Part shown: positions 3,001 to 32,000 of the stretch, in pieces
Layout: the number at the start of each line of letters is the position of its first letter
Numbering within the stretch: the stretch's first letter is position 1
Assembly: GCA_042852035.1 (NCBI GenBank)
Contig: BAAFHK010000002.1
Span: 120,001 to 152,000 of the forward strand
Length of the DNA stretch: 32,000 bases
Reading direction: 5' to 3'
From: Candidatus Saccharimonadota bacterium
GTDB taxonomy: Bacteria > Patescibacteriota > Gracilibacteria > BD1-5 > UBA2023
Translations under genes and position numbers: made by a program
Notes under the pieces: generated by a model
The model's input: the letters and a program-made list of their open reading frames with translations, nothing else
The model's database searches: none
Told to the model about the DNA's origin: nothing

Positions 3001-3960
3001 CAGAAGCTCGGTAAATACTCCCTTGAAAATGAAAAGATTTTTATGGATAAGCTTTCAACCTCAAATGAATCAAGTTGGTATTGGTCATCTCGATCTGATC
3101 AGGCTCTCTTTGTTCAGCTCCTTTTTGAACGAAACGAAAGGGAGAAGGCACTTCGTTATCTTGATCCACTCATGCGATATGCTAATTTTGATAGTTTCTA
3201 TGTTTCTACGCAGGAAAAGATACAAGTTCTTCTTGCTCTTCTTGGAGAGTCTCGAGGAATCCAGAAACTTAAGAATCCAGAAACAATAGCACTTCGAGGT
3301 GATACGATAATTTCTGATATTTCAGTTTCACCAGATAGATCTTCGAATACTATGGATACAAATCGAGAAAAAATAGGTCCTTCCTATAGCCTTAAACGAT
3401 CAAATGGTGCAACTCCTCTTATTGTTACTACTCGTATTCAAGATATTCCAAAGGATCTCTCAAAGCTTCCTGCTTATAGCACTGGTTGAATAAAAATCAC
3501 TCGCACGTTTGATCTTATCGATGAATCAAAGGGGCTTGATAAGAATAATAACTTTGTTTCCGTGACTCAGATTAAAGATTTCACCTTTCAAAAGGGGAAA
3601 CTCTATCGAGTAACACTCACGGCTTCGATAGATCGTAAAAGCGATGAATATTGGTATAATCTTGCTATCGAAGATTTCTTCCCAGGTGCATGGAGACCGA
3701 TTAATCAAAATTTCAAGACCGAATCAAGTCTTATGGATAATGTTCAGAATAATGAATATTGGTGGACATATACGGAATCAAAAGAAGATCGATTACTGGT
3801 ACATATGAATTATGGCTGGGGAAATACAAGAAAATATGTCTACTATTTTCGACCGGAGCTTGTAGGAAGTTATCTTTTGCCCCCTGCAACAACCTACTAT
3901 ATGTATAATCCTGATATTCATGCTTATACAGAGTATGCTCAGGTTAAAGTAGTAGAATAG
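1..3960 (+). CDS. Alpha-2-macroglobulin family protein, 5' partial (thioester-containing, YfhM-like)
   Basis: Frame 1 is open from position 1 to TAG 3958-3960 once TGA is read as Gly. It has the bait/MG-domain signature [14 protein letters not shown]. It has the A2M domain [41 protein letters not shown]. An intact thioester motif YPYGCIEQT is present (CIEQ at 2557-2568). The standard-code track breaks it into at least 6 pieces. Confidence 0.9.
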
Positions 3961-6055: not shown

Positions 6056-7747
6056 TTATACTGGAATATCATCTTTTTTGCTGATACTCCAAACAAGTAC
6101 CGATAAGATTACTATACCAAAAAGGATAAAAAACCCAGAGTAATTTACGATTCAAAGTATAACACCACCGAGGACTAATCCAATGACGTTCGCAGCATTC
6201 TGTAGGATTTTCATAGGTCATGCAGAAGCGTTAGAGTCAATCTCTTGAAGTCGCATAGTCTTCGCATATATTTTATTATAATTATCGAGAAATTGATTTT
6301 GTCAGAGGGCCATTCCACAGGCATACCCAACACTATTTATAATTGCGAGAGCAATAAGTACAATTGATCGTGGTCCAAATTCTGTTCCATATCATATAGA
6401 TACAAGTCACATACCGATAAGCGAGACACCAGAAAGTCAGAGTCAAAAGAATGCTACGGTTTTGATACCAATTTTATCCGCAAGTTTTCAGGCGATTTCT
6501 TGGAGTCAAAGCGCTGGTATAGCAATAAAAGCAAGGAGGATGTATGCTGTTTTTTCTGTGCCTATTTTTGCAAGGAATTCTATAAGAAATGTTGAGGCAA
6601 ATGTATCCCAAAATCAAAAAATAAGAACAAGAGACATAGTCCAGTATATTACCAAATATATTGGAGTATGGAGCATGATATTCTTAATAACTGCTGCTGT
6701 ATTTTTTGTTTCCAGGAGGAGCTCTTTCCATTTTAATGGGTTAGTCTCTTTTTGTTTTGGTTTAATAAAGATATATTTTGCTGACTCTACAACCTTCTGC
6801 AGATCGATGGCATTTATTTTCTCAGATATGTACTCAGCAACATTTTCCTTATTTAATTTTTTGATTCCAATAGTAAAAGAAGTTATATCAGATATCGAGA
6901 TACTTTCATCAGAATTATCAAAGAATCGGCTTGTAAAGAAGAGGAATCCTGCAATGATAATCCCAAGAACAATAACGGCAAACGTCGGATTGACCGAAAG
7001 AATAAAGCCTGAAAGAACAAGACCCATGAGAGATCCCAATCCATAAGTAATATTGTTTCTTGCAAGAATCTTTCCATATTCGCTTGGATGCGCATGGGAA
7101 AGTATATATCAATAGGTAGAGATATCATTAATTTCTTTTGTTAGACCATAACAAATCGATGCTATGACTATGAGGACCCAGTTGAGTGCATTATCAAAAA
7201 ACCATCCCCATATGGAGCTAAAACCATCAGGAATTATGGTTTTTCCAGTAACTTCAACCACGCTAAATACGTTGTATATAAAGTTAAAAAATATCCCGAC
7301 AGCTATTAATTGAGATATGGCCGCGATGATAAAAAGTTTTTTTGTTGAATAATATCTCTGAAGAATTCCAACAGGGATATCTAGGAGAAATGCAATCGCA
7401 TTAGCAATTCAAAGAAATATTCCTACAAGAGCTACCTTTTTCAGCTGAAAGGTAAAAAAGAATACCATAGAAAAGTGAAATATCATCCAAACAAATCCTT
7501 GGAATGCATTTGTAAGATAAAAATTTCTTAATTTATGTCCCTCAAAAGCATTATTTGCAGAAATAACAATAACATCTTCTAGATGTTCGGTCGCAGTTGT
7601 GATTCATTCCTCACTTCAGTTTTCTTCTCCTTTTTTCTTATCGGTACTCTCATAGGCTATCGTATCCTCATTTATCTTTAGAGGATCTGGGCTACTTGGG
7701 TTTGATGTGATTTCTTCCTGAGGGGAAGATTCATTTTCGAGAGGCAT
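6056..7747 (-). CDS. Polytopic membrane protein, probable MFS-type transporter with long central loop
   Basis: 563 codons open in code 25. I checked every tta/cta in the interval and none is in frame. It has an acidic N-terminus, then hydrophobic helices. An MFS motif-A-like stretch PVGILQRYYSTKKLFII is present. A soluble insert of about 90 aa separates two hydrophobic halves. TAA stop at 6056-6058. Confidence 0.55.
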
Positions 7748-7896
7748 AATGAATGAAAAAATAAGCCGAGAGCGGCCTATATATTATCATGGGTCACTTC
7801 TTTACGTGTTCCTGACCAGGGAACAATATTACGATACAACGAATCTTATTTTTTTGCAAAGAATTGCTCTTGCAGGAAGTAAAGTTTTATGTAGGG

Positions 7897-8832: not shown

Positions 8833-9558
8833 TTATAACTGATTCCTTAATGCATCTATCATTGGTTTTAGACTTTCTGGAATGTCTCTTGGCATTTTTG
8901 CATCGACAATCACATACATATCTCACGTTTTTCCTTCACTTATTCGACCTTTTCCACTAATCTTAAACTTTGTTCCGGGTTTTGTTCAGGCTTTTACTTT
9001 GAGAGTAAGATGCTTTCCATAGACCGTTCGTACATCCAAAGATGTATCATAGAGAAAATCTAAGAAGGGGATTTCCATGGTTTCGATAACATCGAGGCTT
9101 GTTTCTTCTTTCCTCTTCTGTGGTTCATTATAAACCTCATCCTCCTCATATGGATTTCTTCGAGATTTTCCTCATCCCATCCCAGAGAGTATATCTCAAA
9201 AATCGAACTCAAATCATTGATTTCCTCAATTTCATAATCCAAACTGACGGAAAATATCTTCGAATCAGCCATATCACGTTCCATTGGTTTTGTATCCAGA
9301 TCAAAAAGGATTGCCAGATCACATTCCTCAAAAAGGATTTCCGTCAGCGGATCAGAATTGATCGTAATTCTTTTTCTTTGTGCTATCTGAGAGTGTTTGA
9401 TAGGCTTCATTAATCTCCTTAAATTTTTCCTCAGCCTTTTTATCCCCCTTGTTTCTATCAGGGTGATACTGCATGGCAAGTTTTTTGTATGCCTTTTTAA
9501 TCTCGGCTTCAGTTGCTGATTTTTGTACTCCGAGAATGTCATAATAATTTTTACTCAT
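8833..9558 (-). CDS. J-domain co-chaperone (DnaJ/CbpA-like): J domain + G/F linker + single C-terminal substrate-binding domain, no zinc finger
   Basis: 241 aa. The J domain reads [35 protein letters not shown]. The G/F linker is rich in G, F, N and S. The C-terminal part reads [37 protein letters not shown]. There are 13 in-frame TGA, 11 of them inside the G/F linker (9172-9354). The 160-aa track ORF at 9060-9542 is in the wrong frame. Confidence 0.85.
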
Positions 9559-9564
9559 ACCAAT

Positions 9565-9592
9565 ATTTTATAAAAAAAATAGCACCTGTCAA
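9565..9592 (-). promoter_or_regulatory. Sigma-70-like promoter TTGACA-16-TAAAAT ending 6 nt before the J-protein ATG
   Basis: Minus strand reads TTGACA (9587-9592), a 16-nt spacer, TAAAAT (9565-9570), ATTGGT, then ATG (9556-9558). Confidence 0.45.
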
Positions 9593-9605
9593 AGGATGGT
9601 GCTAT
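9579..9605. promoter_or_regulatory. CIRCE-like inverted repeat (candidate HrcA operator) overlapping the J-protein promoter
   Basis: ATAGCACCT-N9-TGGTGCTAT has 9-N9-9 geometry with core TAGCAC/GTGCTA. The CIRCE consensus is TTAGCACTC-N9-GAGTGCTAA. The -35 hexamer lies in the spacer and one arm lies between -35 and -10. Confidence 0.45.
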
Positions 9606-9648
9606 TTTTCTTACTTGCTCAGAAGAACTATTTCTATAATATTATTCT

Positions 9649-11538
9649 ATGCGAACCCAGACAAGCGAATACATAAAAAAAATCCTCAAAAACCTGCCTC
9701 TTTCACCCTGAGTTTACCAAATGAAAGATAAGGAAGGAAAAGTGATTTATGTTGGAAAGGCAAAAAATTTAAAAAGCCGAGTGAATTCCTATTTTGATCG
9801 GACGAGTGAGCTTACTCTTGCAAAAAAACAGATGGTAGGAAAGATATCAGATATAGAAACGATACTTTGTGAGACTGAGGTTGAAGCACTTGTTCTAGAG
9901 ACTAATCTTATCAAGCACCTCACCCCCAAATACAATATCCTCATGAAGGATGATAAGAATCTTGCTTACCTAAAAATTACTCAATCACCAATTCCTGAGC
10001 TCGTAAAGACGCGTATTCGCATAAAAGATGGGTCTGAATATTTTGGCCCCTATGTATCCTGAGTTGAACAATGTGTACGGGCTTTACGGCGTATTTTTAA
10101 GATTCGAAATTGTCGAATGAAGTTTCAAGTGAACGAGTGAATATTAAGAATTACTGATAAGGCAGGGAAGACGGTTCCATGTTTAGATTACTATATCTGA
10201 CTTTGTCCTGCTCCATGTCTCTTAGAAGACGAGAAAATTTCGCTTCATAAAGAAAATATAGAGAAAGCGCGAATGTTTCTTCTTGGAAAGAACGATGACA
10301 TTATTTCCGACCTTCAAAAAGAAATGTATGCTTACTCGAAAAATCTTGAGTTTGAAAAAGCAATGGAGATAAAAGATACCCTTGAAGCTCTTAAGCTTCT
10401 TCATGAGAGACAGAAAGTCCGCGATATTGTTCAAGGAAATATTGATATTTTCTTGAAGTATGAAAAGTATGATAAAATATATATTGCCCTTACTCAAATT
10501 CGATCATCGCAGATTGTTTGAGTATTTCGACATGAGGTAAATCTTGGTGCAGATGAAAAAGAAAATTTAGATATATCATTTCTTATGAGGCAGTATTTGG
10601 ATAAAAATGATATACCAGACTTACTTATTCTCTCAGAGGGAATTTCAGATCCTTCATTTTTAGAGTTTCTAAAAACACTTCATATAGCTATAGAATATCC
10701 ACAAATTGGACCCAAAAAAGAACTTCTTGAGTTTACGCGAAATCAGATTCGTGAGTATGCCTATAAAAGAGAAATGGAAACGCTTGAGCAGAAAATTCTT
10801 ACGAGAGAACATATGGTTCATGTTTTAGAAAAACTTTGATATGATGCTCCAAAAAAATGAGAAATAATTTTCGAATGTTATGATATATCTCATACTGATG
10901 GGCATTTTACTTATGCGAGTCGGGTGGTTATTGTGAATGGAAAAGCGGAAACATCTCGATATAAAAAGTACAAAATAAAAACCCTCGATGATGGTCAGAT
11001 TGATGATTTTGCTTCCCATAAGGAAGTCATGATTCGAAGAACCATTGAGGGGCTTGAGAATAATAACTTCCCGCATCTTATTATCATCGATGGAGGAAAA
11101 TGACAGCTTTCATCTGCTCTTTCTGGAATTCGGGAGTGAAATTGGAAGTTTTTTCATGAGAAAGATCAAAAAGGTGACGAATTTGTCCCTCCCATTTGTT
11201 CTCTAGCAAAAAAGGAAGAAGAAATCTTTCTTCCAGGCAGAAAGGATTCAGTAATGTTTGAAAAGGGTACTCCAGAACTTATGGTTATCCAAAAAGCTCG
11301 AGATGAATCACATAGATTTTCCATATGAGCAAATAAAGGCGCACGTATGAAAAGTATGAAAAAGAATATTCTAGAAGAGTTACCTTGATTTGGTCCTATA
11401 ACAAGAAAAAAACTTTTAAAAATAAGTGGAGATATTGAAAATATAAAGAATATCGAACTTGAAGAAATAAAAAAAATAGTTACAAAGACACAACTTCAGA
11501 CCTTAATAGATCATTGACTGTTTTCATGTATATCCTAG
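9649..11538 (+). CDS. uvrC: Excinuclease ABC subunit C
   Basis: 629 aa. The true start is ATG 9649, giving MRTQTSEYIKKILKNLPLSP-[TGA=G]-VYQMKDKEGKVIYVGKAKNLKSRVNSYF (GIY-YIG domain). Also present are CLDYYI-G-LCPAPC, IIIDGGK-G-QL, RDESHRFSI and a C-terminal HhH. TAG stop at 11536-11538. Confidence 0.93.
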
Positions 11539-18129: not shown

Positions 18130-20013
18130 TTATCGTATCTTCCAATTTGTTATCTCATCAGAGGTAAGTGGGGTTACGAATTCATTAGCATAGTATATTT
18201 TACTTGCTGGACGCGATTTTCCTACGTACCCAGTTTTTGTATAGGCTATCTCCTTTCGGAAACATGACTCATCGAGGCAGAGGCTCCCAAGAGTTACTCA
18301 TACTGGTGGAATAATCTCTTTTTTCCTTATGTATCATCGGCGTATGAGTTCTTCTGCAATATGATGAAAAATGGGTCATGCTCAAGTGACTCATGATACA
18401 TCATCCATGCTAGAATTATCAGCATTTCCAACCCAGACTCAGATAATAATTTCATCAGTGTATGCTATAGTCCAATTATCATGAAAGTCGGTACTAGTTC
18501 ATGTTTTTACTGCCATAGGAAGGGATGTATTGAGGATGCTAGATTCACCGAAAGTCATACTTCGATTTGCATGATCAGAGAGTATATCGTAAAGGAGAAA
18601 ATTTTGAGGATTATTCAGTTCTGTAATGTGCCGATATCAGCTTACAATGTTCTCAAGAGAAAGCTCTATAGATCAGAGTACAATACCATATCCATAATAG
18701 CTTGCATCGTGATTGAGCTCGAATCAAAGTGATCGGAAATTTTCATACACTTTACTTACACCAATCTCTTCAGTAAGTCTTACAGTAGCGCTGTTAAGGC
18801 TATTTCAGAGGGCGCTTTTTAGACTTATTGGTCCATATGCTTTAGGGATATAGTTTTCTGGAACATAGGAGACTCCATCTTGTCCCGTTTCGTATACCTT
18901 TGCTTCATCTAAAATAAATTCATTTGGATCATGATGTTCTAGAATGATATGGTAGAGAAAGGGTTTTAGAACCGATCCAACAGATCGCTTTTTTACGATC
19001 ATATCATATTGATTTCATATCGCATCATCTTTATTTCCTATGTAGAGGATAACTTTCTTTTCCTTTTCTGACCAAGCATAAATGGCACCGTTGTGAACAT
19101 TTTTTGCCTCAAGAGGATATAAGACTGACCTCAGTATATTATTGGCCTCTATAGAAGCATCTTTATCTACGCTCGTTATGATTTTTTTATATGGATTTGA
19201 ACATATATCATTCGAGATGCTAAGAGTAAAATCAGAGAGTTTTGAGCTGACTGGATTATTACAGTAGAGAGAAAGTTCCTTTTTGATTCGTTCCGTGAGA
19301 AAAGGGAGGGTATCCATATAATTCTTTTTTTCCCTTTTCAGAAGAGGTTTTTCTGTTGATTTGAGTCCAAGACGATTTTCGATTTGTTTTCTGTATTCTT
19401 CAGATGATCCACCTAGATTTGGATAGCGGAGTCGTGTAATGATTTCTGAAATGGCTTCATCAGAGATGGAGTTGATATCTTTGTTTCAAAAATAGTTTTC
19501 AATCGCAGCAGGTATACCATATATTCCATTTCCCATATATACCGTCTCGAGGTATTTTTTTAGGATTTCATCTTTTGAGTACTTTATTTCTGCTATGAAG
19601 GCCCATAATCCTTCTCGAAATTTTTGGGATATACTTCGCGGGGCTTCGGGGAAGTATCTATTTTTTATATACTGTTCAGTAATCGTTGATCACCCTCGTG
19701 TTATTTTTCCTGCAAGAAGACTTTCCCGTAAAACATTCAATTTTGAAAAGAGATCTATTCCATAATGGGAATAGAATCTTTTATCTTCAATGGAAACAAT
19801 ATTATGAACTAATACAACATCAAGGCTTCAGGAGTATTCAATACTATATCAATCCTCTCAGGGGAGAAGTGCAATTTGTTTTTCATTTCTATCAAAAATC
19901 AATAAATTTCCTCGAAGATTCGGAGTTGTTTCAAGTGATTGGTAAATATCGGTAATAGTAATAACTCAAATGAGAGTGAGAGAAAATAACAGAGTGAGAA
20001 GAATGCGTTTCAT
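18130..20013 (-). CDS. Class A penicillin-binding protein (GT51 transglycosylase + transpeptidase), PBP1C-like in size
   Basis: 627 aa. It has an N-terminal anchor. GT51 motifs are EDKRFYSHYGID, RG-G-STITEQ and KDEILKKYLETVYMGNGIYGI. Transpeptidase motifs are RSVGSVLKPF (SxxK), SLNS (SxN) and KT-G-TS (KTG). Confidence 0.9.
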
Positions 20014-20054
20014 AAGCTCATTATATGGGAAAATTCTCCAAAATAAACTTTTGG

Positions 20055-20082
20055 TTTGACTTATAGAAAAATACTATATAAT
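20055..20082 (+). promoter_or_regulatory. Sigma-70-like promoter TTTGAC(T)-15/16-TATAAT for rplJL
   Basis: TTGACT is at 20056-20061 and TATAAT at 20077-20082. An untranslated leader of about 200 nt follows. Confidence 0.45.
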
Positions 20083-20089
20083 CCACTCA

Positions 20090-20286
20090 CTCTATCGGAG
20101 ACCGTGAGACGGACAATAGTTCTATAAATCTCACCGAGATGGACAATTAGATTTGAATTACTGGCCTCGTAGAAATTCTATGGCGTATTCACTAAAGTTG
20201 TTCGTACGATATTGTGCGATTTTTTTTCGCATTTCGTCAGAGTTTATGATTTTTTCATAATTATAATTCCTCAATTTTTACTCGTT
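20090..20286 (+). promoter_or_regulatory. Candidate rplJ (L10) autoregulatory leader
   Basis: A leader of about 200 nt precedes rplJ, the position where L10-leader RNAs are known. It contains a duplicated GAGA(C/T)GGACAAT motif 27 nt apart. It also has small hairpins (CCGT-GAG-ACGG; ATCTC-ACC-GAGAT). Assignment is by position only. Confidence 0.3.
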
Positions 20287-20952
20287 ATGGCTGTTTCTAA
20301 AGCAAAAAAAGTAGAACAACTTGCTGCACTCGAGGCTCATCTCAAAGATGCAAAGTCAGTTGCTTTTACTTCAAATCAAAAGGTAACTGTAGCAGAAGTA
20401 TCTTCACTTAAGAAAGATCTTCGCGCCCAGAATGCTCTCTTCCTCATTGCAAAAAAGACTCTTATTCGTATTGCATTTAAGAATGTTTATGGTGTCGAAC
20501 TCGATATCTCTACACTTCCAGGACAAGTTGCCCTTGTTATTGGTAAGGGTGATGCTATCGCACCATTTGGTGTTGCTAATAAATATGCTAATGAATGGAA
20601 GAAAGAAGAAAAAATGGTATTCGTAGGTGGATATATGGATGGACGACTTATGGATGGTGCTGAGACAAAGAAGCTCGCTACTCTCCCTTCTCGTGAGGTT
20701 CTCCTTGCGAAACTCCTTGGTTCTATGATGTCTCCACTTTCTGGTCTTGCTCGATTCTTCGATGCAGCAAAGAAAGACCTCGAAACAAAGAATCTTACCA
20801 AAGTTGGTGATCTCACTATCGCAGCCCCAGAAGCTCCAAAGGCTCCAGAAACTGCAAGTGTTGCTTCTCCTGCTGTAAATGAGGAGGCTCCAGCTACTGT
20901 AGAAGAATCTGCTCCAGTTGAATCTGCTCCAGAAGCTCCAAAGGCCGAATAA
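20287..20952 (+). CDS. rplJ: 50S ribosomal protein L10 with Ala/Pro/Glu-rich C-terminal extension
   Basis: 221 aa from ATG 20287 (MAVSKAKKVEQLAALEAHLKDAKSVAF...). The track's upstream extension from 20212 is not credible. There is no in-frame TGA. TAA stop. Confidence 0.93.
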   Translation: MAVSKAKKVEQLAALEAHLKDAKSVAFTSNQKVTVAEVSSLKKDLRAQNALFLIAKKTLIRIAFKNVYGVELDISTLPGQVALVIGKGDAIAPFGVANKYANEWKKEEKMVFVGGYMDGRLMDGAETKKLATLPSREVLLAKLLGSMMSPLSGLARFFDAAKKDLETKNLTKVGDLTIAAPEAPKAPETASVASPAVNEEAPATVEESAPVESAPEAPKAE

Positions 20953-21127
20953 TTTTCGTTTCACATCCTACTCATGATTCATGGGTAGGTGCGAGGTGAA
21001 AATCTCGATTGGTTCCATAACTTGCGAGCAGAGTAAAGCAATTCTTGCTACTCATCCTACATGGATTTCTTTGCTCCGCTTGTAGTGCGGTCCAAAATTA
21101 ACTTTTATTTTATTATTTTTTTATACT

Positions 21128-21511
21128 ATGGCTGATCTTAGTAAAAATGCTGAGAAAGTTCTCGAACTCGTCGAGGGTCTCACAATCGTAGAACTCGCTG
21201 ATCTCGTCTCTGCTATGGAGGAGAAATTCGGTGTTTCTGCAGCTGCTCCTGTAGCAGTTATGGCTGGTGGTGCTGCACCTGCAGGTGGTGGTGATGAAGA
21301 AAAAACATCATTCGATGTTGTTATGACTTCTGCTGGTGGTCAAAAGATTGCTGTTATTAAGGTTATTCGTGAAATCACTGGTCTTGGACTTGGTGAAGCG
21401 AAGGCTCTTGCTGACAACGGTGGTGATATCAAGAAGGGAATCAAGAAAGATGAAGCTGAAAAAATCAAGAAGCAACTTGAGGAATCAGGTGCTACAGTTG
21501 AGCTTAAGTAA
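21128..21511 (+). CDS. rplL: 50S ribosomal protein L7/L12
   Basis: 127 aa with [26 protein letters not shown], an Ala/Gly hinge, and [24 protein letters not shown]...ATVELK. There is no in-frame TGA. Confidence 0.97.
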
Positions 21512-21520
21512 GTTTTCTTT

Positions 21521-21552
21521 AAAAACCCCCTCGAATATTCGAGGGGGTTTTT
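21521..21552. terminator. Strong bidirectional rho-independent terminator
   Basis: AAAAA-CCCCCTCGAATATTCGAGGGGG-TTTTT is a perfect palindrome with stem at 21526-21547. It lies between convergent rplL and the exonuclease gene. Confidence 0.85.
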
Positions 21553-21587
21553 AAATATATATTTTTCAGGCTATATATGAGAGGTAT

Positions 21588-22190
21588 CTATCGTTTAAAT
21601 TTTAGAAACTTAAGGAGCGCTTCTCTCGTTGCCATAATGTCTCATCTCGCAGTATGAGCACTATATCCGGTTATTCGAAGTACTTCAGCAAGGCCCCCAG
21701 GTTTTGAGAGGCTTGTTGACTTAAAGGGGAGGGGAATTTTATTGTATCGTGCTATAGCATTTGCTTGGTTTGCAATAGATTTTGTATCTATAATATCATT
21801 TCAAAGCTTCATATAAAGATTGGGCTTTCTTGCATTCGCAAAAACTGATGCGAGAAATGCAATATCAGCAGCAACAAATTGTCATACAAGTATTGGTTTT
21901 TGCTCTCATGGAAAGTGTGTTTCAAGAAATCATTGAAAGTATTCACAAAATTCTTCATAGGATTTTCCAGCAGCAATACGATCAAGGGTGAAGCCATTGT
22001 ATTCAAGGGCTTTTTGGTCGATAATAATGTTATCGGGTGGAAGGAGATCCATAAAAAATTCTCAGATGATCTGAAATTGGGCATCCATGACAACGGCTCA
22101 AACTTCAATAACTCCATGTTGAAACGGATTAAGTCCAGTCATTTCGAGATCAAGTATAAGATATACTCAAGGAGATGTTGTATCAGGCAT
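21588..22190 (-). CDS. DEDDh 3'-5' exonuclease (DnaQ/epsilon-like)
   Basis: 200 aa. Exo I is LILDLEMTGLNP, Exo II is GQFVAADIAFL and Exo III is YSAHTAR-G-DIMAT. The track ORF 21809-22117 is in the wrong frame. Confidence 0.8.
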
Positions 22191-22292
22191 AGAAAACTTG
22201 ATTTTTAAAGATTCTTGTCTACTCTTCTTTTTATACGATAAAGAATGATAGTTCTTATACGAAAAAAGTCAAAAAATTTCACTTTACAAATT

Positions 22293-22892
22293 ATGACAAA
22301 GCCATTTATAGTCCAAGATCCCTATTTTGATAAAGCAAAGAAACTCGGGTATCGAGCTAGAAGCGCATTTAAGCTTATTGAGATTGATGAAAAATTTCAT
22401 GTAATAAAGCCATGAATGTGTGTTCTTGATGTTGCGAGCGCACCTTGAAGTTTTATTCAGGTGATTTCAAAGATTGTGGGAGAAGAATGAAGAGTAATCG
22501 GAGTTGATATACAATCAATTAAGTCTTTTGGGCAAAAAAATATTTCATTCCTTCAGGCAAGTATCTTTGAGTATGATAAAATCCGAACTTTTATTCAAGA
22601 GAGGGGAATTGAACAATTTGATCTTATTACTTCAGATATAGCACCAAATACTTCAGGTATTACCTGAGTCGATCAATATAGATCTATTGAATTGAACATT
22701 GCTATTTTAGATGTGGCTGAAGTATTTCTCAAAAAATGATGAAATCTTATTCTTAAGGTATTTGTTTGAGAGGATGTGGAAGATCTTATAGCTCCTGTGA
22801 AACAAAAATATACAAAACTTACTCGTTTTAAACCAAAAGCTTGTCGTGATCGAAGTTTCGAAGAGTACTTCATCTGTCAATGAAAGAAATAG
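22293..22892 (+). CDS. rlmE: 23S rRNA (uridine2552-2'-O)-methyltransferase RlmE/FtsJ
   Basis: 199 aa with YRARSAFKLIEIDEKF, VLDVASAP-G-SF, SDIAPNTSGIT-G-VD, KVFV-G-ED, and KPKACRDRSFEEYFIC. Confidence 0.9.
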
Positions 22893-22963
22893 TCTGTCAA
22901 ATCTAATTATTTGGTAAAACTAACATTTATCTATAATAGAATCTATCAATAGAGATTCATTTT

Positions 22964-24609
22964 ATGAAGTATACCTTTCTTGCTATATCATTTTTTTGGA
23001 TATCTTGAGTATCAGCATTGGAGAGATTTGATTCATCCTGTTATCGCGAAGTGGCTACAATTGATACGAATTCTTGAGTTTCATCGGTTCAAGTACAAAA
23101 TACTACTGATGATATTTTTTTTAGTACCACTTTTTGAGATATCCTTCCTTCAAGGTTAGAAAATACAAAAAAAATCCACCCATTCAATATACCTCAAAAG
23201 ATTTTGTTGATATCCCACTTCTTGATGATAGTGATCCTTATACCTGAATTGAAATTGATCCAACACTTTTTTTGAAGGGTGAAGTGAGTTACGTTTTTGA
23301 TTTAGGAAAAATATATACTCGTTGACAAATAAAACCAGAAATAGGATTTGTGACGGATAGAAATATCTCAGTAAGTCTATCTATTGATGGAAACTTTTTT
23401 ATCCCAGTAACCCTTGGGAGTATAGGAAACTTTGACTTTCGTTTCATAAAAATAGGATTTTCTGGGAATTGAAAACAAACAGAAATCACAAGATTCCATA
23501 CACTCAATTTTTTTCAAAATATACAAAATACTTACGTATTCTCTTCACCTGGTTGAGAGGTAAGGATATTTCGGTGATATGCATGTACTTCCCAGGGTCA
23601 TCAGTACTCTATGTTAGATCGCCCGAAACTTCCATATACGGAGATTATCCCAGATAAAAGCTACACACCTATTTTTTTACCAAATCCTCTTTATAAAGAT
23701 GATGGTGATAGTGATGGATTTGAGAATATTCGTGATAATTGTCCTATCGTAAATAACCCAGATCAAAATGACAGAAATAATGACGGTATCTGAGATGCTT
23801 GTGATGATTCTGATAGGGATAATAGGTATGGATTTGATGACAACTGTCCTACTATAAGTAATCCAGATCAAGCTGATAAAAATGCGAATAAAATCGGAGA
23901 TGCCTGTGAATTTGATACCGATAAGGATGGCGTTTTCGATGATACTGATAATGCCATTCATATGAAAAATCCAGATCAAGCTGATATTGATAGGGATGGA
24001 ATTGGTGATGTGATGGATAATTGTAATCTCTATAATCCAGATCAATTAGATTTGGATAAAAATGGAAGAGGTGATGTGTGCGATAAGAATGAAGAATATC
24101 GCAGAACAAATGATTTCGATAAAGATACAATTTTGGATTATCTCGATAACTGCAGTAAAATGAGTAATCAGAATCAAGCTGATTCTGATATTGATGGCAT
24201 CGGTGACGTATGTGATAACTGTAAAGAGTTAAAAAATCCAGAACAATCAGATATTGATGTGAATGGAGTAGGTGATAGTTGTGAAGATGTTGATCATGAT
24301 GGAGTAGTATGATGGAGAGATAATTGTCCGAGTATCTCGAATCCCGATCAAAAAGACAGTGATAATAATAGGGTGGGAGATATCTGTAGTGATATTGATG
24401 GAGATTGAAAATATGATGAGGTTGATAATTGTCCAACGGTTTTTAATGATACTCAATATGATATCGATAAAGATGGAAAGTGAGATGTCTGTGATGCCGA
24501 TGATAATAGGTTTATCGAATCAAATAAATATGTCTTTATGGCTCTTGTTGGTATTTTTGGGCTTATTTTTATCGGAGGTATTATTGTGCTTATTCGTAAA
24601 CTTCAGTAA
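22964..24609 (+). CDS. Surface protein: signal peptide + discoidin-like domain + thrombospondin type 3 Ca-binding repeats + C-terminal TM anchor; reading frame broken at an A8 tract
   Basis: Frame 2 (22964-23305) encodes MKYTFLAISFFWISGVSA... and dead-ends at TAG 23303-23305. Frame 1 is open from 23125 to TAA 24607-24609. It encodes VSYVFDLGKIY...SLSIDGNFF (F5/8-type-C-like), then about 14 DxDxDGxGDxCD / DNCPxxxNPDQ units. It ends in YVFMALVGIFGLIFIGGIIVLI. A -1 shift in A8 (23167-23174) joins the two frames. Confidence 0.75.
23167..23174 (+). repeat. Homopolymeric A8 tract at the frame junction (A_AAA_AAA slippery heptamer in the 0 frame)
   Basis: The sequence reads aat-aca-aaa-aaa-atc in the signal-peptide frame. 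One extra A, or a -1 slip, gives aaa-aaa-aat-cca-ccc, which is the downstream frame. Confidence 0.9.
23698..24507 (+). repeat. Tandem coding repeats (thrombospondin type 3 / Asp-rich Ca-binding loops)
   Basis: Recurrent nucleotide units are present. For example, aatccagatcaagctgat occurs at about 23862 and again at about 23968. They encode NPDQADxDxDGIGDxCDNC. This explains the long spurious antisense ORFs. Confidence 0.8.
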
Positions 24610-24620
24610 TTTTTCAACCT

Positions 24621-27600
24621 ATGACACAAGTTTCTCTTCTATCTTTTCTCAGACGCATCTCGTGGCTCATATCCTTTCTTCTTGGTGCTTTTTCTGCTCT
24701 CCTCCTTTCAGATTTATCTTCTTGAAGTTATACGACTGGTGCTGAGAATTTCTTTGAATGGGGATGGATATGGGGAGTTATATTTATGCTTCTTTTTAAG
24801 AAATTTCTTCTCTCAGAAAATATTATATCAGCTATTTCTTTTGAGCCAGTACCTCTAAAGAATGACATTTGAGTATCTTCACCGCATCAAAATATTGATG
24901 TTCAATCATTTCCACTAATACAGTTGAGTGAAATATCTGATATGAGAGGTAATTTTAAAGAAAATATCCAAGCCGAATCGAAACAAGAAATAGAAAAAAA
25001 ACAGGTGACACCGGTGATTCCTCCTCCACCGGAAGTAAAGAAACCAAATTGGATTGTTGCTTTCTTTTCCGATCGACCGCTTGCAAAGATTTGAGGTATT
25101 ATCCTCTTTTTGGCTGCATTTTTCTTTCTCTCACTTGTATGGTCAATTGTTGGCTCTATAGGAAAAGTTATTATAGGTCTTATTTTCGGTTTCTCTCTCT
25201 ATGTTATTTGAGTTTGGATGGATAAAAAATGACATATTACAGAGTCTCGTACTCTTTTATGAGTTGGTATCGCTATAAATACTCTTACTATTCTTTCTTG
25301 AAGATGGATTATTGGGGATACATCAGGAAGTATTTTTTCAGATACGCTTACTCTTATCTTTCTTATTCTAAATACTCTTTTTGCTGTAGCTACTGGACTC
25401 GTATATAACTCGAGAACTTTTCTTATTTTCTCATTTGTTTTTGCTTATTTTATACCGTTCATTGTTCGTTCAGAATCAGATAGCTCCATCCTTATAATGT
25501 TCTATACGCTCACAATTTCTCTCGGTTGATATTTGCTAACCTGGCTTTTTCTACAGAGAAATGAGCGTATTGATGATATGAAGTGGCTATTTCGAACAAT
25601 TATTATAGGAAGCCTTATGCTTCTTGGATTAACGGGTTTTGGTGTAGAGAGTGTAATGGAGCTTATTTTGATATCTATTCTGAGCTCTATTCTTACAACC
25701 ACAGGAATATTTATCTCAAGAAAGACTGAACTTCGTGACGAATCAGTTCCAAGTCTACTCATTTCTGCTTATATAATTCTTATATGTTCAATCTTCTGAA
25801 TCTGAGATAAAGAACAGGCAACAATAATCGTTAGTTTTATTTTCACTCTTCCGATTTTGGTTTATACAGCTCTATTTATGGTGCGAGTGAATCTTGTAAT
25901 ATATACTTGGATTTTGCTTATTCCGTTGTGAGTTGCATTAATTCTTTTTTGAGTATTTGGAATTCCTTCGTTAGTGCTCATTCTTGTCCCTATTGTTCTT
26001 ATATACGGATTGGCGTGATTATTCCTTGTTTCTTTTATGACAGAAGTTCTGCGCTATGTCTTTTTCCTAGTTATTAGTGCTTTTATTTTTATTTGTTCTG
26101 TTGCCATAGATGGATCTCACTATGAGATTTCTCTATCAAGCCGTTGGGTTATAAGTATTTCTTCACTCGGATTTTTTCTCCTTTCACTCTGGTCGAGTTA
26201 CAAATATAAATTAATCCATCTTTCACTCATTGCTCTTATATCTTCCTCAATTATATTTACGACTTCTCTTATTCCAGAATGGGAAGCATCATGGATGATG
26301 TATATTCTTTTCCTTGCAGTGACCTTTTCTTATCCTTTTTTCGTTAGAAAATCAATCAAAGAGCAATTTTCCTCATTTATCAGCTATCAAGTAGTGGCAA
26401 ATCTTTTTATGATAGGAGAGCTATTTTACCTCGGGAGAAATATCTGGTTTACAAGAGATGGGAGTTCACTAGTTACCCTTGGGATAATTGTTTTTCTTCT
26501 TTCAATAGCATCACTCTTCTACTCATTTATGCTTATTCGAGTCACTTTGAGTAATGGAAGCCTTTCATCTCTGAGTTCTGATCTAAAAAGGAATGCTACG
26601 ACACTGCTCTGAATCCCGCTATCCCTTTTTACTCTTGCAATTGCTGTGACTTTCTCAGAAAGCCCACTTGTGGTATCGACGGCATGGGTAGTTGAATCAG
26701 TAGTGCTTGCATATTATTCTTCAAAACAGAGGAATCAATGAATGCTTATAGGAACAATTATATTAGCAAGCATATGAATATTGAGGCTTATACCATTTTT
26801 TGATAGTATATACACTGGAGAGTATCTTGCTCTTGTTCCCATAACTATCATTGCACTGAGTCTATATTGTACACTACTATTTATTGTTGATAGAGAAAAA
26901 AATCCACTTGCAAATGTTTATGATTTTATTCATATCTTTGGCATAAGTATGGTTGCTTATGCTCTTATGGAAATTATTCCTCATACCCAGACTGGATGGA
27001 GCCTACTTTGACTTAATATATTTCTTCTTCTTTCAACTTGGTTTTATACAAAAGTATCGAGCAAGATTATCTCCTTGTGGATGATATTTTTATCTCTTAT
27101 TATTTACTTTTATCACCTAGTTCGAGTTGAGGAACTCAGTATGAATCTTGGACCAGTATTTATACAACTTACAGCTCTTTCAATTGGTACATTTGCCGTT
27201 TGGTATATGAAATCAAAAAACCAATTCTGAAAGTATGCATTTATTTATGCTTTCATTATGTTTCTTTTGATTACGTCTATTTATGTAAATCAACTGACGA
27301 ATAATATTTTTGCCGTAACCATCTACCTTACCATTATTGCTACGATTTATCTCCTATTTTGAATCAATAATAATGTTGCAAAGTTTAGGACTATCTGACT
27401 TTATATCGGAAGCGGGGTACTTATAAAAATTCTGTTTTATGATATTTGGGCCTGAGTTGATAATCTCATCATTCGTGTTGTAGCTCTCATGATTACATGA
27501 GGTATTATGATTGCTATTTCTCAACTTTATGGAAGGAGAGTAAACCGACCATGGAATGAGGAATTCGCTCTTTCTAACTTTGCGAATAATTCCCAAAGTG

Positions 27601-27968
27601 CAATGATCATTAATGATGAAATGCAATGAGAGCATCCATCTTCTCCTGATGACATGCCATTCGATGAAAGTATTTCAAATGATCTAAAAGAGTTTGATAT
27701 AAGTCATATTTCTTCGATTGAGCTTCAGAATTTATCTTGAGAAATAATTCTTCTCTCTCGTAGGGCAGGAATAATTCGTGTTGCAAACTACATTGTAAAA
27801 CATCTCGGAAAGACAGAATTTGTACCAAATGAACTTGAAGCAGCTCTAAAAAACCTTATTCCTCACATACAGAGCTCTCTCCCCAAAAAGGAACTTGATA
27901 CTATCTTATTAAAAATTCATAATTGGGTACTTCTATGATGAAAAATAGTTATAAAAGAAAAAATATAA
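24621..27968 (+). CDS. Large polytopic membrane protein, DUF2339-like
   Basis: 1115 aa, open in frame 0 with TGA=Gly. It has dozens of hydrophobic helices. The N-terminal motif is FFSDRPLAKI-G-GIILFLAAFFFLSL. The C-terminal motif is FRTI-G-LYIGSGVLIKILFYDIWA. A soluble tail of about 110 aa follows. TAA stop at 27966-27968. The start lies 11 nt after the upstream stop. Confidence 0.8.
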
Positions 27969-28381
27969 AGTGGTTTTATTTCCTTCTTTCCTGATTCAGG
28001 TATTTTTTCCTTTTACTTTGAGTCGGATTTTTTCTCCATTTTCTTTTACTTACTCTAAGTATTGCTTTTACAAAATCTAATACAGATGTAGAGAGAAAAT
28101 ATGCGTATACAACTGATGGATGTAGTATGTTTATCGACGGGGACTACAGGGAATGCTGTGAGGCTCATGATCGTGCATATTGGGAAGGTGGGCGACTTTA
28201 TAAGAAGCTTGTAGCTGATGCTCTTCTCTATGCTTGCATAGCAGAGAAGTGACATAATGTTCGAGAAAATTTTATGTTTCCTGCTGTACTCATTGGTGGA
28301 AATCCAGGTTTTCCTACGAAATTTCGTTGGGGTTATGGTTACCCATATCCATATTATGATATTCGATGAGTTCAGAAATAA
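27935..28381 (+). CDS. Small membrane-anchored protein with secretory-PLA2-like CCxxHDxxY motif
   Basis: 148 aa from ATG 27935, overlapping the DUF2339 3' end by 34 nt. It has an N-terminal TM (WFYFLLSGFRYFFLLLGVGFFLHFLLL). It then reads YTTDGCSMFIDGDYRECCEAHDRAYWEGG, which resembles the sPLA2 catalytic His-Asp network CCxxHDxCY. TAA stop. Confidence 0.5.
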
Positions 28382-28483
28382 GTGTTTATATTATATTCTA
28401 AATTTGTAAATACTATATATTCATATTTATTTGAGTGCATTAGTAACTCATGATATGATAATCACTAATTAACCATTTTTTTT

Positions 28484-31108
28484 ATGTATCTTAAGGGTAT
28501 ATTTGCTGTTGCTCGTTTTTTCTTACGCCTCCGTTACCGAGTGCGGATTGAGGGAATGAAGGAATTTGATCATCCTGGTCCAATTATTGTATTTCCGAAT
28601 CATCCAGCACTTGTTGATCCGATGATTATGATTACCGAGATTGGGAGAAAAAAAATACTTTCACCCGTAATGACCGAAACGTATATAAATACTCCGTGAC
28701 TCGGTCCAATTTTGCATGCTATGAAGACGGTTCCAGTAGGTGATCTAGCGCGATGATGAAACATTGATGATGTAGAAAAGGCTTTCGAAGGTATCCGAAA
28801 GGGAATTGAAAACAAGCAAAATATTCTCATCTATCCATCATGACATATTTATGTTCAACCATTTGAACATATTGTTGGGAAAAAAATGGCTTTTGAAATT
28901 GTTTCTCGACTCCCTGACGATGCTAAGATTATTGTGGCTCGTACGAAATGACTTTGGGGAAGCATATGGGGAAAGGCTTATACTGGAGAATCACCAAAAC
29001 TCATGAAGGTCCTCACAAAGTCTTTGTGGTATATTTTCTCTAATGGGATATTCTTTGTGCCCAAACGGGAAGTTACTATAGAGTACAAGGATATGACAGA
29101 ACAACTCCGAATGTGGAAAAAGGAGGGGTTAGATGCATTCAATCAGAATCTTCAAGACTATTATAATCATTCCTGAAATGAAGAATGTCGTTTCATTAAA
29201 CATTATTTTTACCATAATGATGTCCTAGGAAAGAAAGAGCCTGAGGCAATCGCGTGATCCATTGCTGAGCTTGAGAAAAAAACAGAGGTGAATATAGATA
29301 TTCCTGCTGAAACCCTAAAAGATATTAGGAAAAAAGTTGCCACAATAAAAAAGATTGATTTGAAAGATATAAAAGATGAGTCGAATCTTGTTCTTGAGCT
29401 CCATTGTGATTCACTTGATATGGCAGAAATCAAATCTGTAATACAGAAGGATTATCCGAATTCTTCGAACCCCCCGATTGGTTTACTTAAGACTCCTAAG
29501 GATTTAGCATATATGTCTCTCTGAGTTTCGCTCTGAGAAGAGAAGCTCCCTCGTTGCACTTTTCAGCCAAGAACTGAAACCAATATAGTCTATAAGTATA
29601 GTGAGGGGGATACGATTCTTTCTGAAGCAAAAAAGGTTTTTAAGAGTGAAAAAAATAGTCCTTTTCTCTATGATGCTATACTCTGAGAAATGACGAGAGA
29701 TGAATTTTTACTACGTTCATATGTTATATCAACCTATCTTTCTCGTATAAAAGATGACCGAATTGGTATCATGATACCAGCACTATCTTCTACTTCTTTG
29801 CTTCTTTTTTGAGTTTATCTCTCCTGAAAGCTCCCTGTTATGCTTAATTGGACGGTGTGAGAAAAGTCATTTGCGCATTGTATGAATTTTGCCGGACTTG
29901 AAGTCATACTCACGAGCAAAAAGTTTTATGAAAAAATCCAATCTCCTTGGCTTGCTGCTTTTGAATGAAAAATGGTATTTATTGAGGATATTATAAAGGA
30001 TCTATCATTTTCAATGAAAGGTATAGCTGTTATTAAAAAGTTTTTTTTCTTACTCCCAAAGAAGAGGGAGGATGCGGTAATGCTTTTTACATCATGAAGC
30101 GAATCTCTTCCTAAGGCAATTCTTCTTACTCATAAGAACATTCTTTGTGATATTGAGTGAGCTCTTGCTCTTGTTCCTTTTAAGAAAAATGAGACAATTA
30201 TTTGATTCCTCCCACCATTTCATAGTTTTGGTTTTACAATAAATACGATTTTTCCATTCGTAGCACCAGTGCAAGCTGCCTATACACCAGACCCTGGTGA
30301 TGCTCGAACTATAGGAAAGATTCTTTTACACACTCAAGCGAGTATTGTATCAGCAACTCCAACATTTCTTCGTATGATTCTTTCTGGAAATGAGGCTCAC
30401 TCACTCACTTCACTCAAATTTGCTTTTGTGTGAGCAGAGAAATGTAACGATGAAGTATTTTCTCTTTTTCGAAAGAAGTGCCCTGAAGCTATTATTCTTG
30501 AATGATATGGTATTACTGAGTGTAGTCCTATAGTGACGGTGAATCCTCTTTCAAAACAACTGAAATGATCAGCAGGAAAATTTCTTCCTACAATAATACC
30601 AATGATTCGATCACTTGATAATAAAGAGTCTCTCAAAGCATGAGAACAATGAATGATTTACATTACGGGCCCAAGTATATTCTGATGATATATTGACCCA
30701 AATTTGGAAAGTCCTTTTGATGAATTTGATTGAAAAAAATGGTATAAAACTTGAGATCTTGGTTATATAGATGAAGAATGATTTCTCTTTATTACTGGCA
30801 GACTCAAGCGGTTTGTGAAAATTGCCTGAGAAATGATATCACTTCCTTTTATCGAGGGTATTCTTCTTGAAAAATATGGAAATCCTGAGGTTACAACTCT
30901 TGCAATTGAGGCAAAAGAAGAAAATGGGAATGTCACAATTGTTGCATTCACAAATTTTGAAGAAAGTGTTGATGTAATCAATGATTACATACATACCCAT
31001 GGTGCATCAAATCTTGTAAAAATTGCAAGAGTAGAGAAGCTAAATGCTATTCCTATTCTTTGAACGGGAAAGACCGATTATAAGCAGTTAAAATCACTGA
31101 TTCAGTAG
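28484..31108 (+). CDS. Tri-domain fusion: lysophospholipid acyltransferase (PlsC-like) + acyl-carrier domain + acyl-AMP/ACP ligase (Aas-like)
   Basis: 874 aa. The acyltransferase domain has FPNHPALVDP (HX4D) and IYPS-G-HI. The carrier domain has LELHCDSLDMAEIKSVI (DSL phosphopantetheine site). The adenylation domain has [64 protein letters not shown] and L-G-TGKTDYK. TAG stop. Confidence 0.88.
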
Positions 31109-31140
31109 GCTTGTAATTCTCCACGATTACCTATAATTGA

Positions 31141-31170
31141 GGGCAATACGTAATTTACGTATTGCCCTTT
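31141..31170 (+). terminator. Perfect 12-bp hairpin + U-tract (terminator of the fusion gene or 5' attenuator of the next)
   Basis: GGGCAATACGTA-ATT-TACGTATTGCCC-TTT. A TATAAT box (31131-31136) sits just upstream. The next ATG is 17 nt downstream. Confidence 0.65.
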
Positions 31171-31186
31171 AGAATTTCATTTTTTG

Positions 31187-32000
31187 ATGCAAAACAAACC
31201 TCATAATCCTATAATCAGGAATCTTACACGTATCTCACGAGAATCATCAAAAAGTTTCGAAGATTTTTTTGATTGGAATCAGTATAAGAAAGATGATGGA
31301 CAATACTACATGCCCCCAGAATTACTCTCGATATATGGATCAGAGTTATATGAAAAACTTACTGAGAAACAACTCCGAGAGCTCACCCGAATCGAAGCCA
31401 TACAAACACTTTATCTCTATGCCTATGCAGAAAGTGTGATGTGTTACTATATGGCACGCCATCTGGTAAAATCAGACTTTTGAAGTGAAGAACATGCTTT
31501 TATCCTCAGGGAACAAATCGAAGAGTATCGGCATCAGGATATGTTTCTCCGTGCATTAGAAATCCTTGGGAAAGATTATAAACCAATGTCAAAATTCACG
31601 AAATGGTGGACAGGATTTGAGGCAATAGTACTTCCGCCAAAGATTTTCTTTCTGCTTCAAATTGCAATTGAACTTGTAACACGTGAGATTTGAAGACTTA
31701 CATTTCCAGATGAGAGAATCCACCCGCTTGTCCGAGATCTCTGTATGATTCATGAAAGGGAAGAGGCTCGACACGTTACCTTTTCTAATGCATATATAGA
31801 AAATGCCTATAAAAGAGATGGATTTTTTATGAGAACAATTGCTGGTATATGCATAGCTCTCGATATAGCGTTTCTCCACCATTTCTACGTTTACCCCTGA
31901 ATGTATAAAAAGGCCTGAATCTCCGAAGATCTCAAATATTACAAAACAGCGAAGAAATTCATTTTAAGAAGTGAAGTGAAAAATATGATGACAGGAAGTG
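31187..32000 (+). CDS. Ferritin-like diiron oxygenase (AurF / desaturase-like), 3' partial
   Basis: Open to the window end. It has two E...ExxH-type ligand motifs, LREQIEEYRHQDMF and MIHEREEARHVTF, in a helical context. This matches AurF-family / diiron-carboxylate enzymes. Confidence 0.65.

Follow-up and report, generated by a model that had tools for sequence, protein, structure and literature searches.

A locus bearing on how bacteria of the Candidate Phyla Radiation (CPR, Patescibacteria) that are without lipid synthesis obtain and maintain their membranes was found in the window analysed here, that is, the whole stretch of 32,000 nucleotides (nt) from positions 120,001 to 152,000 of the Gracilibacteria contig BAAFHK010000002.1. 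The lack of lipid synthesis that an earlier, sequence-only reading of the window had presumed for CPR bacteria agrees with the published description of a Gracilibacterium without lipid synthesis and dependent on external fatty acids (PMC6851277). Four plus-strand genes lie one behind the other at the right end of the window. Gene 1 encodes a membrane protein of 1115 amino acids (aa) of the DUF2339/Arc3A family (24621-27968), gene 2 a 148-aa phospholipase A2 (PLA2)-like protein (27935-28381), gene 3 an 874-aa Aas-like fusion (28484-31108), and the fourth gene a diiron oxygenase of the AurF family (31187 to beyond 32000, with 271 of about 300 aa inside the window). Judged from its sequence features, the group of genes 1 to 3 may be a locus for generating, handling and re-acylating lysophospholipids that serves salvage as well as membrane repair, a proposal that we regard as evenly poised.

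Translated with table 11, the region contained short open reading frames (ORFs) only. With UGA taken as sense, the window contained 48 ORFs of 150 aa or longer (15,246 aa) instead of 15 (2,772 aa). The fusion gene has 29 UGA codons; of the 232 residues that align with them in eight standard-code Bacteroidota homologues of the fusion, 163 were Gly and none was Trp, the Gly background being 6.4%. The genome reads genetic code 25, in which UGA stands for Gly and not for Trp. Under this code the four ORFs are real and not chance frames, being long and having conserved homologues, and all coordinates of the co-directional arrangement described by the sequence-only reading were recovered: the DUF2339 and PLA2-like genes overlap by 34 nt, 102 nt separate the PLA2-like gene from the fusion gene, and 78 nt separate the latter from the AurF-like gene. 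Translated with code 25, gene 2 gives exactly the protein of the NCBI entry GAB0174953.1 (HHAS10_08320, Candidatus Altimarinota, i.e. Gracilibacteria), and gene 3 that of HHAS10_08330; both entries are named "hypothetical protein". Public homologues are often translated with code 4 (e.g. P0002, P0003 and P0005), which puts Trp where Gly belongs and thereby degrades the alignments.

The product of gene 2 gave no match to Pfam at E ≤ 0.1, and the gathering score of the curated PLA2 model was not reached. The family member P0080 scored below threshold with PLA2G12 (0.027) and Phospholip_A2_3 (0.067); no Pfam or NCBIfam model matched at threshold any of the family members tested, which their sources name "hypothetical protein". 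When a 100-sequence profile of the family was compared with all PDB sequences, four matches were obtained at E ≤ 10, all of them bacterial or fungal secreted PLA2s: 8k1w (E 1.2e-3), followed by 7ygk, 4aup and 1faz, with the D-G-C-S, C, H-D, Y and the downstream D aligned. The catalytic motif CCEAHDRAY is encoded at 28154-28180 and the putative calcium-loop motif DGC at 28115-28123. In alignments of 11 and of 100 sequences the residues D61, G62, C63, C74, C75, H78, D79, Y82, D95, C101 and W132 were invariant or nearly so, and four Cys are invariant in the family. The catalytic His-Asp within C-x-x-H-D-x-x-Y and a second, His-supporting Asp (D95) are present and aligned to those of 8k1w, and D61-G62-C63, the predicted calcium-loop element, aligned to SDGCS, SDSCS and DDGCS of 8k1w, 7ygk and 4aup, respectively.

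The fold was assessed on an AlphaFold2 model of P0004, an NCBI-translated homologue 61% identical to gene 2, which has a mean predicted local distance difference test (pLDDT) value of 87 and shows a transmembrane helix at the N-terminus and three helices after it. Foldseek placed 8k1w and 7ygk at the top of the PDB matches with a probability of 1.0 and TM scores of 0.47-0.51 on the target, and the remaining list was mostly PLA2; the superposition had a root-mean-square deviation of 2.6-3.0 over about 80 columns, with E-values of only 0.09-0.17. In BFVD the model matched phage "phospholipase A2" proteins and the VP1 PLA2 domains of parvoviruses and densoviruses. Because profile match, fold and catalytic residues agree, gene 2 is accepted as encoding a divergent PLA2-like protein of the bacterial/fungal secreted type that stands outside the Pfam family, an assignment that is remote but consistent. 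The sequence-only reading had called this small protein sPLA2-like and had named structure prediction as a check, and both hold up, the same PLA2s heading the profile and the fold search.

The protein shares with the secreted PLA2s of PF09056 (Streptomyces violaceoruber 1faz, Saccharothrix 8k1w, Sciscionella 7ygk and Tuber 4aup) a predicted small, all-helical, disulfide-bonded fold, the D-x-C calcium-loop element, the C-x-x-H-D-x-x-Y motif and the downstream Asp. It differs from them in a C-terminal P-x-x-R-W-G-Y-G motif and a CC doublet, which are the family's own. Moreover, whereas the known bacterial and fungal PLA2s are freely secreted, the gracilibacterial protein appears to be held in the membrane by its N-terminal helix. 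The family is separate from PF09056, whose Pfam model it does not match, and it has no curated model. Its N-terminus is basic and runs into a single long helix (signal anchor); in the family, an N-terminal hydrophobic segment was found in 115 of 153 members and a lipobox-like motif in 50 of 153. From the basic N-terminus, the single long helix, the four invariant Cys and the signal-anchor or lipobox N-termini of the family, we infer that the PLA2-like domain is extracytoplasmic and anchored by its N-terminal helix. The family is large: whereas a word-indexed search returned only 10 relatives, an exhaustive profile search with a threshold of E ≤ 1e-3 yielded 2,423 cluster representatives, which corresponds to about 2,400 clusters formed at 50% identity. 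A scan of GTDB species-representative genomes gave 527 loci, mostly in Gammaproteobacteria; the family is also present in Acidobacteriota, phages and other groups.

The PLA2-like domain also occurs in 29 viral contigs (L098-L126). In a Mu-like phage (L003 8001-8273, the same as L112) it forms a 90-aa ORF between the portal and the Mu-F head-morphogenesis genes. BFVD contains phage proteins at 38% identity, and some related phage proteins are annotated "Phospholipase A2". Some members of the PLA2-like family, P0088 and P0119, join the domain to a C-terminal phosphatase of the dual-specificity/PTP-like type (Tc-R-P, PTP-NADK, Y_phosphatase2), a domain type that is also known from polymorphic toxins.

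Gene 1 was assigned by Pfam PF10101 (residues 152-566, E 3.4e-12, 46.4 bits against a gathering cut-off of 33.6). A crude count gave 23 hydropathy peaks; the protein has at least 20 hydrophobic segments and, at its C-terminus, a soluble part of about 150 aa. The DUF2339 family is that of Arc3A, and Arc3A of Pseudomonas aeruginosa is the factor most critical for survival of the phospholipase toxin Tle3; it prevents the build-up of lysophosphatidylethanolamine and monolyso-cardiolipin, acts additively with Aas, and the arc3 genes adjoin aas in many bacteria of unrelated phyla (PMC8926400). A 32-transmembrane DUF2339 protein was flagged as enigmatic in a closed Gracilibacterium genome (PMC6851277). 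In the window the fusion gene lies 516 nt downstream of the DUF2339 gene, which is the association with aas described for arc3, and both genes were found in one locus also in L085, L002, L005, L009, L088 and L090/91.

The gracilibacterial locus thus resembles Arc3A (PA5114) and Aas of P. aeruginosa (Ting et al. 2022, eLife, PMC8926400) in that a giant polytopic DUF2339 protein is encoded near a lysophospholipid acyltransferase of the Aas type, and the theme, by analogy, would be the same, i.e. keeping lysophospholipid low after phospholipase A action. Unlike the Pseudomonas system, the gracilibacterial locus has no Arc3B (DUF3999) partner, and its Aas-like enzyme includes a carrier domain within the polypeptide and is not fused to LplT. 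Because the arc3-aas neighbourhood has already been published, the core pairing of DUF2339 and Aas is known, and the remark of the sequence-only reading that it knew of no description of the combination as a unit has to be corrected to that extent. What is new is the cell's own PLA2-like gene, which is wedged between the DUF2339 and Aas-like genes, absent from that place in Pseudomonas, and overlaps the former. Since the group is reported to be without de novo lipid synthesis, the gracilibacterial locus may have salvage, and not defence, as its chief purpose.

The product of gene 3 comprises an N-terminal acyltransferase domain of the PlsC type with an HX4D motif (28538-28912, Pfam Acyltransferase, E 1.4e-7), a carrier domain (29321-29455) with its DSL Ser at 29411-29413, and an adenylation domain of the acyl-ACP-synthetase type (29702-30691, Pfam AMP-binding, E 4e-45). 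The carrier domain scored below threshold with Pfam PP-binding (E 0.033), which is on record for the Bacteroidota homologues of the fusion. The motifs NHPALVD, PSG, TSGSExxPKA, GYGxTE, YxTGDLG and GxGKxDY as well as the DSL Ser are conserved with respect to these homologues, and the best NCBIfam matches were three models, those for acyl-[ACP]--phospholipid O-acyltransferase, for long-chain fatty acid--[ACP] ligase and for the bifunctional Aas, none of which reached its equivalog cut-off. The three-domain architecture (about 880 aa) is not specific to the CPR, since it is widespread in Bacteroidota at about 40% identity; it was also found in Vampirococcus lugosii. In Gracilibacteria the fusion gene is often followed by genes for a 432-aa protein of the YiiX type (Peptidase_C92, permuted NlpC/P60) and for a 4'-phosphopantetheinyl transferase, and this transferase gene, which is adjacent in relatives, speaks for a carrier domain that works. 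Enzymes of the permuted NlpC/P60 type are as a rule directed at lipids (PMC12994826).

A further point of comparison is LplT-Aas, the lysophospholipid repair system of E. coli, which PMC8926400 also mentions. In the fusion as in Aas of E. coli, a PlsC-type acyltransferase at the N-terminus and an acyl-ACP-synthetase at the C-terminus are joined in one polypeptide. By analogy the fusion would, like the E. coli enzyme, spend ATP to put a free fatty acid back onto lysophospholipid. The carrier of E. coli Aas is free ACP, whereas the fusion brings a DSL carrier domain of its own, and an LplT such as that of the E. coli system was not recognised in the window. The only protein of the MFS type in the window (6056-7783, minus strand) was considered as a candidate LplT and rejected, as it gave no NCBIfam match. 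One of the Bacteroidota fusion homologues is divergently paired with an MFS gene, an arrangement reminiscent of LplT-Aas.

About 14 independent Gracilibacteria loci were compared, onto which 23 query proteins were mapped with code 25. The closest relative, L085 (about 85% identical), which also served as the proxy for the sequence past the window end, has the same order as the window: a gene for a surface protein with thrombospondin type-3 (TSP3) repeats, DUF2339, PLA2-like, fusion and AurF. The four-gene block whose synteny the sequence-only reading had proposed to check was therefore recovered in full in L085; elsewhere its genes are shuffled and other lipid genes are inserted. The order is DUF2339, PLA2-like, PAP2 and fusion in L005, and DUF2339, PLA2-like, a 1380-aa protein, an ABC ATPase, a permease and the fusion in L002. 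L009 is arranged as L002 with an Lnb_N gene before that for the 1380-aa protein, Lnb_N being a lipoprotein N-acyltransferase domain (PMC11573676). DUF2339 and PLA2-like genes are followed by PAP2 in L006 and by a PAP2::Lnb_N fusion protein in L007, and L001, L008 and L014 have the PLA2-like gene and PAP2 only. The remaining loci contain the fusion followed by C92 and ACPS (L086), the same three genes followed by a 340-aa protein, DUF2339 and Lnb_N (L088), or DUF2339, Lnb_N, PAP2, fusion and KASIII, then AurF and, further on, C92 and ACPS (L090/91, where the first four genes are contiguous).

The DUF2339 gene is packed against the PLA2-like gene in seven of ten loci (window, L085, L002, L005, L006, L007 and L009). 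The junction is always tight, with the 34-nt overlap in the window and in L085 and a short gap in the other five, and the packing is kept at 40-73% identity. The fusion gene lies within 7 kb in five of the ten (window, L085, L005, L002 and L009), and its identities across loci go down to 66%. Genes of the PAP2, Lnb, YiiX and phosphopantetheinyl transferase types are variably present. That the genes keep company while order and content change argues for a functional, plastic envelope-lipid neighbourhood of genes 1 to 3, to which inheritance contributes as well, because the same genomes have common housekeeping flanks.

The following mechanism is proposed for genes 1 to 3, in which activities, substrates, topology, order of steps and cooperation are read from gene structures, families, catalytic residues, folds and neighbourhoods. 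The PLA2-like protein would be anchored by its N-terminal helix with the disulfide-bonded catalytic domain outside the cell, where it would cleave phospholipids of a host or prey, or those of the cell's own outer leaflet, to lysophospholipid and free fatty acid. The DUF2339 protein, which would be translationally coupled to the PLA2-like protein, would prevent a build-up of lysophospholipid in the membrane of the producer by sequestering it or handing it over. The fusion would use ATP to charge its internal phosphopantetheinyl carrier with free fatty acid and would then pass the acyl group to lysophospholipid, yielding a diacyl lipid. In a group reported to be without de novo lipid synthesis, both salvage and membrane repair would be served. 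A more ambitious form of this mechanism, which we consider rather unlikely, is a lipid-harvesting machine in which the PLA2-like protein would cut host phospholipids at the contact surface, the DUF2339 protein would capture or translocate the lysophospholipids, and the fusion would rebuild them with scavenged fatty acids.

Several observations weigh against a dedicated lysophospholipid locus. The PLA2-like assignment is remote, with E about 1e-3 and 18-20% identity to solved PLA2s, and the fusion scored far below the equivalog cut-offs of PRK08633 (409 of 1221 bits), PRK06334 (339 of 847) and PRK08043 (248 of 886), so that it is Aas-like and not an Aas equivalog. There is a gap in topology, since the PLA2-like domain would face the exterior of the cell and the Aas-like enzyme its interior, and the window offered no recognisable flippase of the LplT type. 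L086, L088 and L090/91 have the fusion, with or without DUF2339, but lack the PLA2-like gene, which stands with PAP2 alone in L001, L008 and L014; for this reason neither the four-gene nor the three-gene unit is obligate. In 68 non-CPR genomes the PLA2-like gene had no conserved neighbour, no neighbour family occurring in more than seven loci. Relatives also carry genes for KASIII, a PlsC-type protein and a CDP-alcohol phosphatidyltransferase near the locus, and they have in common a housekeeping synteny, with TsaD ... penicillin-binding protein, L10 and L12, then AlaRS downstream.

The shared flanks recur in one alternative, in which genes 1 to 3 are independent envelope genes that are adjacent without cooperating, in an inherited region that is prone to rearrangement and lies between the L10-L12 operon and alaS. 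The variation of the region's content from genome to genome, the lack of conserved neighbours outside the CPR and the uninformative promoter and terminator scans described below fit such a region. We nevertheless consider it decidedly unlikely: the tight DUF2339/PLA2-like junction is kept in seven loci at 40-73% identity, the lipid genes stay together despite the changes of order, and the arc3-aas link is independently known from unrelated phyla (PMC8926400). The PAP2 gene raises another possibility. It is the commonest direct neighbour of the PLA2-like gene, and its product matched best the undecaprenyl-diphosphatase models (SepP, 2.6e-27) and also PgpB, which could point to cell-wall lipid carrier metabolism; Lnb-type domains follow in L007 and L009. 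Taken with the low identity to solved PLA2s and the lack of a Pfam PLA2 match at threshold, this is compatible with a PLA2 fold in another role, in which the protein would work with PAP2/Lnb on a different acyl-ester, e.g. of lipoproteins, of anchors of the lipoteichoic type or of polyprenyl-linked lipids, or would bind lipid without catalysis. The Asp of the calcium loop, the His-Asp pair, the Tyr and the second Asp are, however, invariant in 100 diverse members, which argues for catalysis of the PLA2 type and makes another role highly improbable in our view.

Alternatively, the locus might be a weapon combined with self-protection, the surface PLA2-like enzyme lysing host membranes on behalf of an epibiotic or predatory Gracilibacterium, the DUF2339 and Aas-like proteins protecting and repairing the membrane of the producer in the manner of an immunity or repair pair, and lipid nutrition being a by-product. 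The demonstrated role of Arc3A is indeed defence against a phospholipase A toxin, additively with Aas (PMC8926400). The translational coupling of the DUF2339 and PLA2-like genes, indicated by the overlap and by the short gaps elsewhere, is often found in toxin-immunity pairs, and the domain is carried by phages and is structurally like the membrane-breaching PLA2 domains of virions. The gracilibacterial protein, however, appears to be membrane-anchored, neither secreted nor attached to a delivery system, and its gene is missing from several loci that have DUF2339 and the fusion. We hold a weapon to be unlikely as the main function; nothing separates it from salvage, and the two are compatible.

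The fourth gene was assigned by Pfam PF11583 (E 1.5e-36, 126.5 bits against a cut-off of 29.6), and its seven diiron ligands (E, ExxH, E, HxxxExxH) are invariant in 23 AurF-like homologues. Comparison with PDB sequences, by single sequence as well as by profile, gave no match, and the fold search alone succeeded: an AlphaFold2 model of the homologue P0280, which is 81% identical to the L085 orthologue (pLDDT 90), matched AurF 2jcd (TM score 0.63) and CmlI first, followed by R2lox and stearoyl-ACP desaturase. The diiron assignment of the sequence-only reading, like its DUF2339 and Aas-like assignments, therefore agrees with Pfam, intact motifs and metal ligands, and the fold check it had suggested led to AurF and CmlI. 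Like these arylamine N-oxygenases (PF11583), to which it is only 11-12% identical, the protein has a diiron fold of the four-helix-bundle type and the complete set of seven ligands, among them the additional His in HxxxExxH. In five loci its neighbours are KASIII, AMP-ligase, reductase and the Aas-like fusion, and no genes of aminoarene or nitroaromatic pathways are found there. Because these neighbours are fatty-acyl enzymes, an acyl chain or an acyl-carrier species is probably a more plausible substrate than an arylamine.

In all five independent loci the AurF-like gene is accompanied by genes for KASIII, a 345-aa membrane protein, a 489-aa AMP-ligase and a reductase of the 3-beta-HSD type, sometimes also for an alpha/beta hydrolase, a protein of the FA_hydroxylase family and a phosphopantetheinyl transferase. 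This module (L085 9860-14990, L089 5059-8507, L090/L091 6342-14115, and L092) is kept at AurF identities down to 36-39%. In the window/L085 and in L090/91 it adjoins the fusion, and L089 has a partial fusion-like match on the upstream side. Because the module follows the AurF-like gene directly in L085, it probably continues beyond position 32000 in the source contig, with the AurF-like gene as its first gene. The best solved relatives of KASIII are 3row, 3s21 and 4kti, deposited as 3-oxoacyl-[ACP] synthase III, and FabH structures score almost equally; we take the three entries to be Xanthomonas OleA. The reductase matched best the OleD-type 2-alkyl-3-oxoalkanoate reductases of NCBIfam (6e-16), and the AMP-ligase gave a partial match of the OleC type to olefin beta-lactone synthetase (1.6e-21); both matches are weak and far below the equivalog cut-offs. 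An OleB-like alpha/beta hydrolase was found in L090/91 only. The module, known from relatives only, resembles the OleABCD long-chain olefin/beta-lactone pathway in its putative Ole-like components (KASIII, AMP-ligase and reductase, with the hydrolase in L090/91), and, unlike this pathway, adds the AurF-like and FA_hydroxylase-type diiron enzymes and the 345-aa membrane protein.

Since the AurF-like gene always travels with KASIII, AMP-ligase and reductase, it is better read as part of a putative ole-like acyl-condensing module than as a step of PLA2/Aas re-acylation. The ole-like module and the fusion probably draw on one pool of activated acyl chains. The self-contained Lands-cycle-like salvage route of the sequence-only reading is accordingly reduced: genes 1 to 3 may stand as a lysophospholipid locus, and the diiron gene, which had been given the acyl-modifying step, falls outside the cycle. 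A gene for an FAD_binding_4 protein (738 aa in L002) directly follows the fusion in L002 (9730-10836) and follows the AurF/KASIII module in L085 (15016-15780); because of these two positions, the module acts as an insertion of about 6 kb. Long antisense ORFs emerge over real genes once UGA is read as sense. Those at 30326-31039 (minus strand) of the window and at 9001-9744 (minus strand, 247 aa) of L085 were rejected as genes, because they overlap conserved plus-strand genes and because tblastn homology lies on the plus strand; in the public gene call of L085, the 247-aa ORF is annotated in place of the AurF-like gene.

The gene upstream of DUF2339 (22964-24609, plus strand) encodes the TSP3 surface protein, with a signal peptide, thrombospondin type-3 (calcium-binding) repeats and a C-terminal transmembrane anchor. 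By tblastn it was found upstream of DUF2339 also in L085 (69%), L009 (51%) and L006 (48%), and Pfam TSP_3 is recorded for the L085 orthologue. Its frame is broken, the gene being split over two frames at a run of eight A (23167-23174); the L085 orthologue aligned with residues 1-87 in one frame and 64-548 in another. Either the run is an error of the assembly, or the tract is prone to slippage and possibly phase-variable. A repeat search returned the TSP3 repeats and nothing else, and an Rfam search of 20000-32000 gave no match. Promoter-like sites were fewer than in shuffled controls, and no convincing terminator was found between the genes. A large ORF running off the left end of the window (1-3960) contains a thioester-type GCIEQ motif at 2554-2568; on inspection by eye its product resembles a bacterial alpha-2-macroglobulin-like protein.

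Two further gene groups were observed in relatives. A trio of genes for a secreted or anchored protein of about 1380 aa without a Pfam domain, an ABC ATPase and a permease of about 390-460 aa recurs within the lipid locus of L002 (1045-7046), L009 (8136-14165), L088 (from 18730) and L090 (from 18767), and may serve to export or import lipids or lipoproteins. Upstream of the fusion, L086 (1-9720; also L087) has genes for an SDR protein, two radical-SAM proteins, a CDP-alcohol phosphatidyltransferase, a UbiA prenyltransferase, a PEP-utilising enzyme, a GNAT protein and a PlsC-type acyltransferase. This cluster has the look of a biosynthetic one for lipid head-groups or for lipids of the ether type; the lineage is one described as being without lipid synthesis.

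The features that appear new at this locus are an embedded PLA2-like ectoenzyme, a carrier-containing Aas accompanied by a phosphopantetheinyl transferase, and a plastic lipid super-locus in a lineage reported to be without lipid synthesis. The PLA2-like family, for which there is no model, is a gain for annotation whatever the outcome in the CPR, given its about 2,400 clusters and 527 GTDB loci. For the question of how these bacteria obtain and maintain their membranes, the locus gives clonable candidates for three steps, namely the PLA2-like ectoenzyme, the Arc3A-type protein and the self-contained Aas. The cell's own putative phospholipase beside Arc3A offers a natural system in which the sequestering, flipping or handing over of lysophospholipids can be tested. 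If the lipid-harvesting machine were true, it would provide a route to membranes for Gracilibacteria without fatty-acid synthase and the first mechanistic handle on Arc3A.

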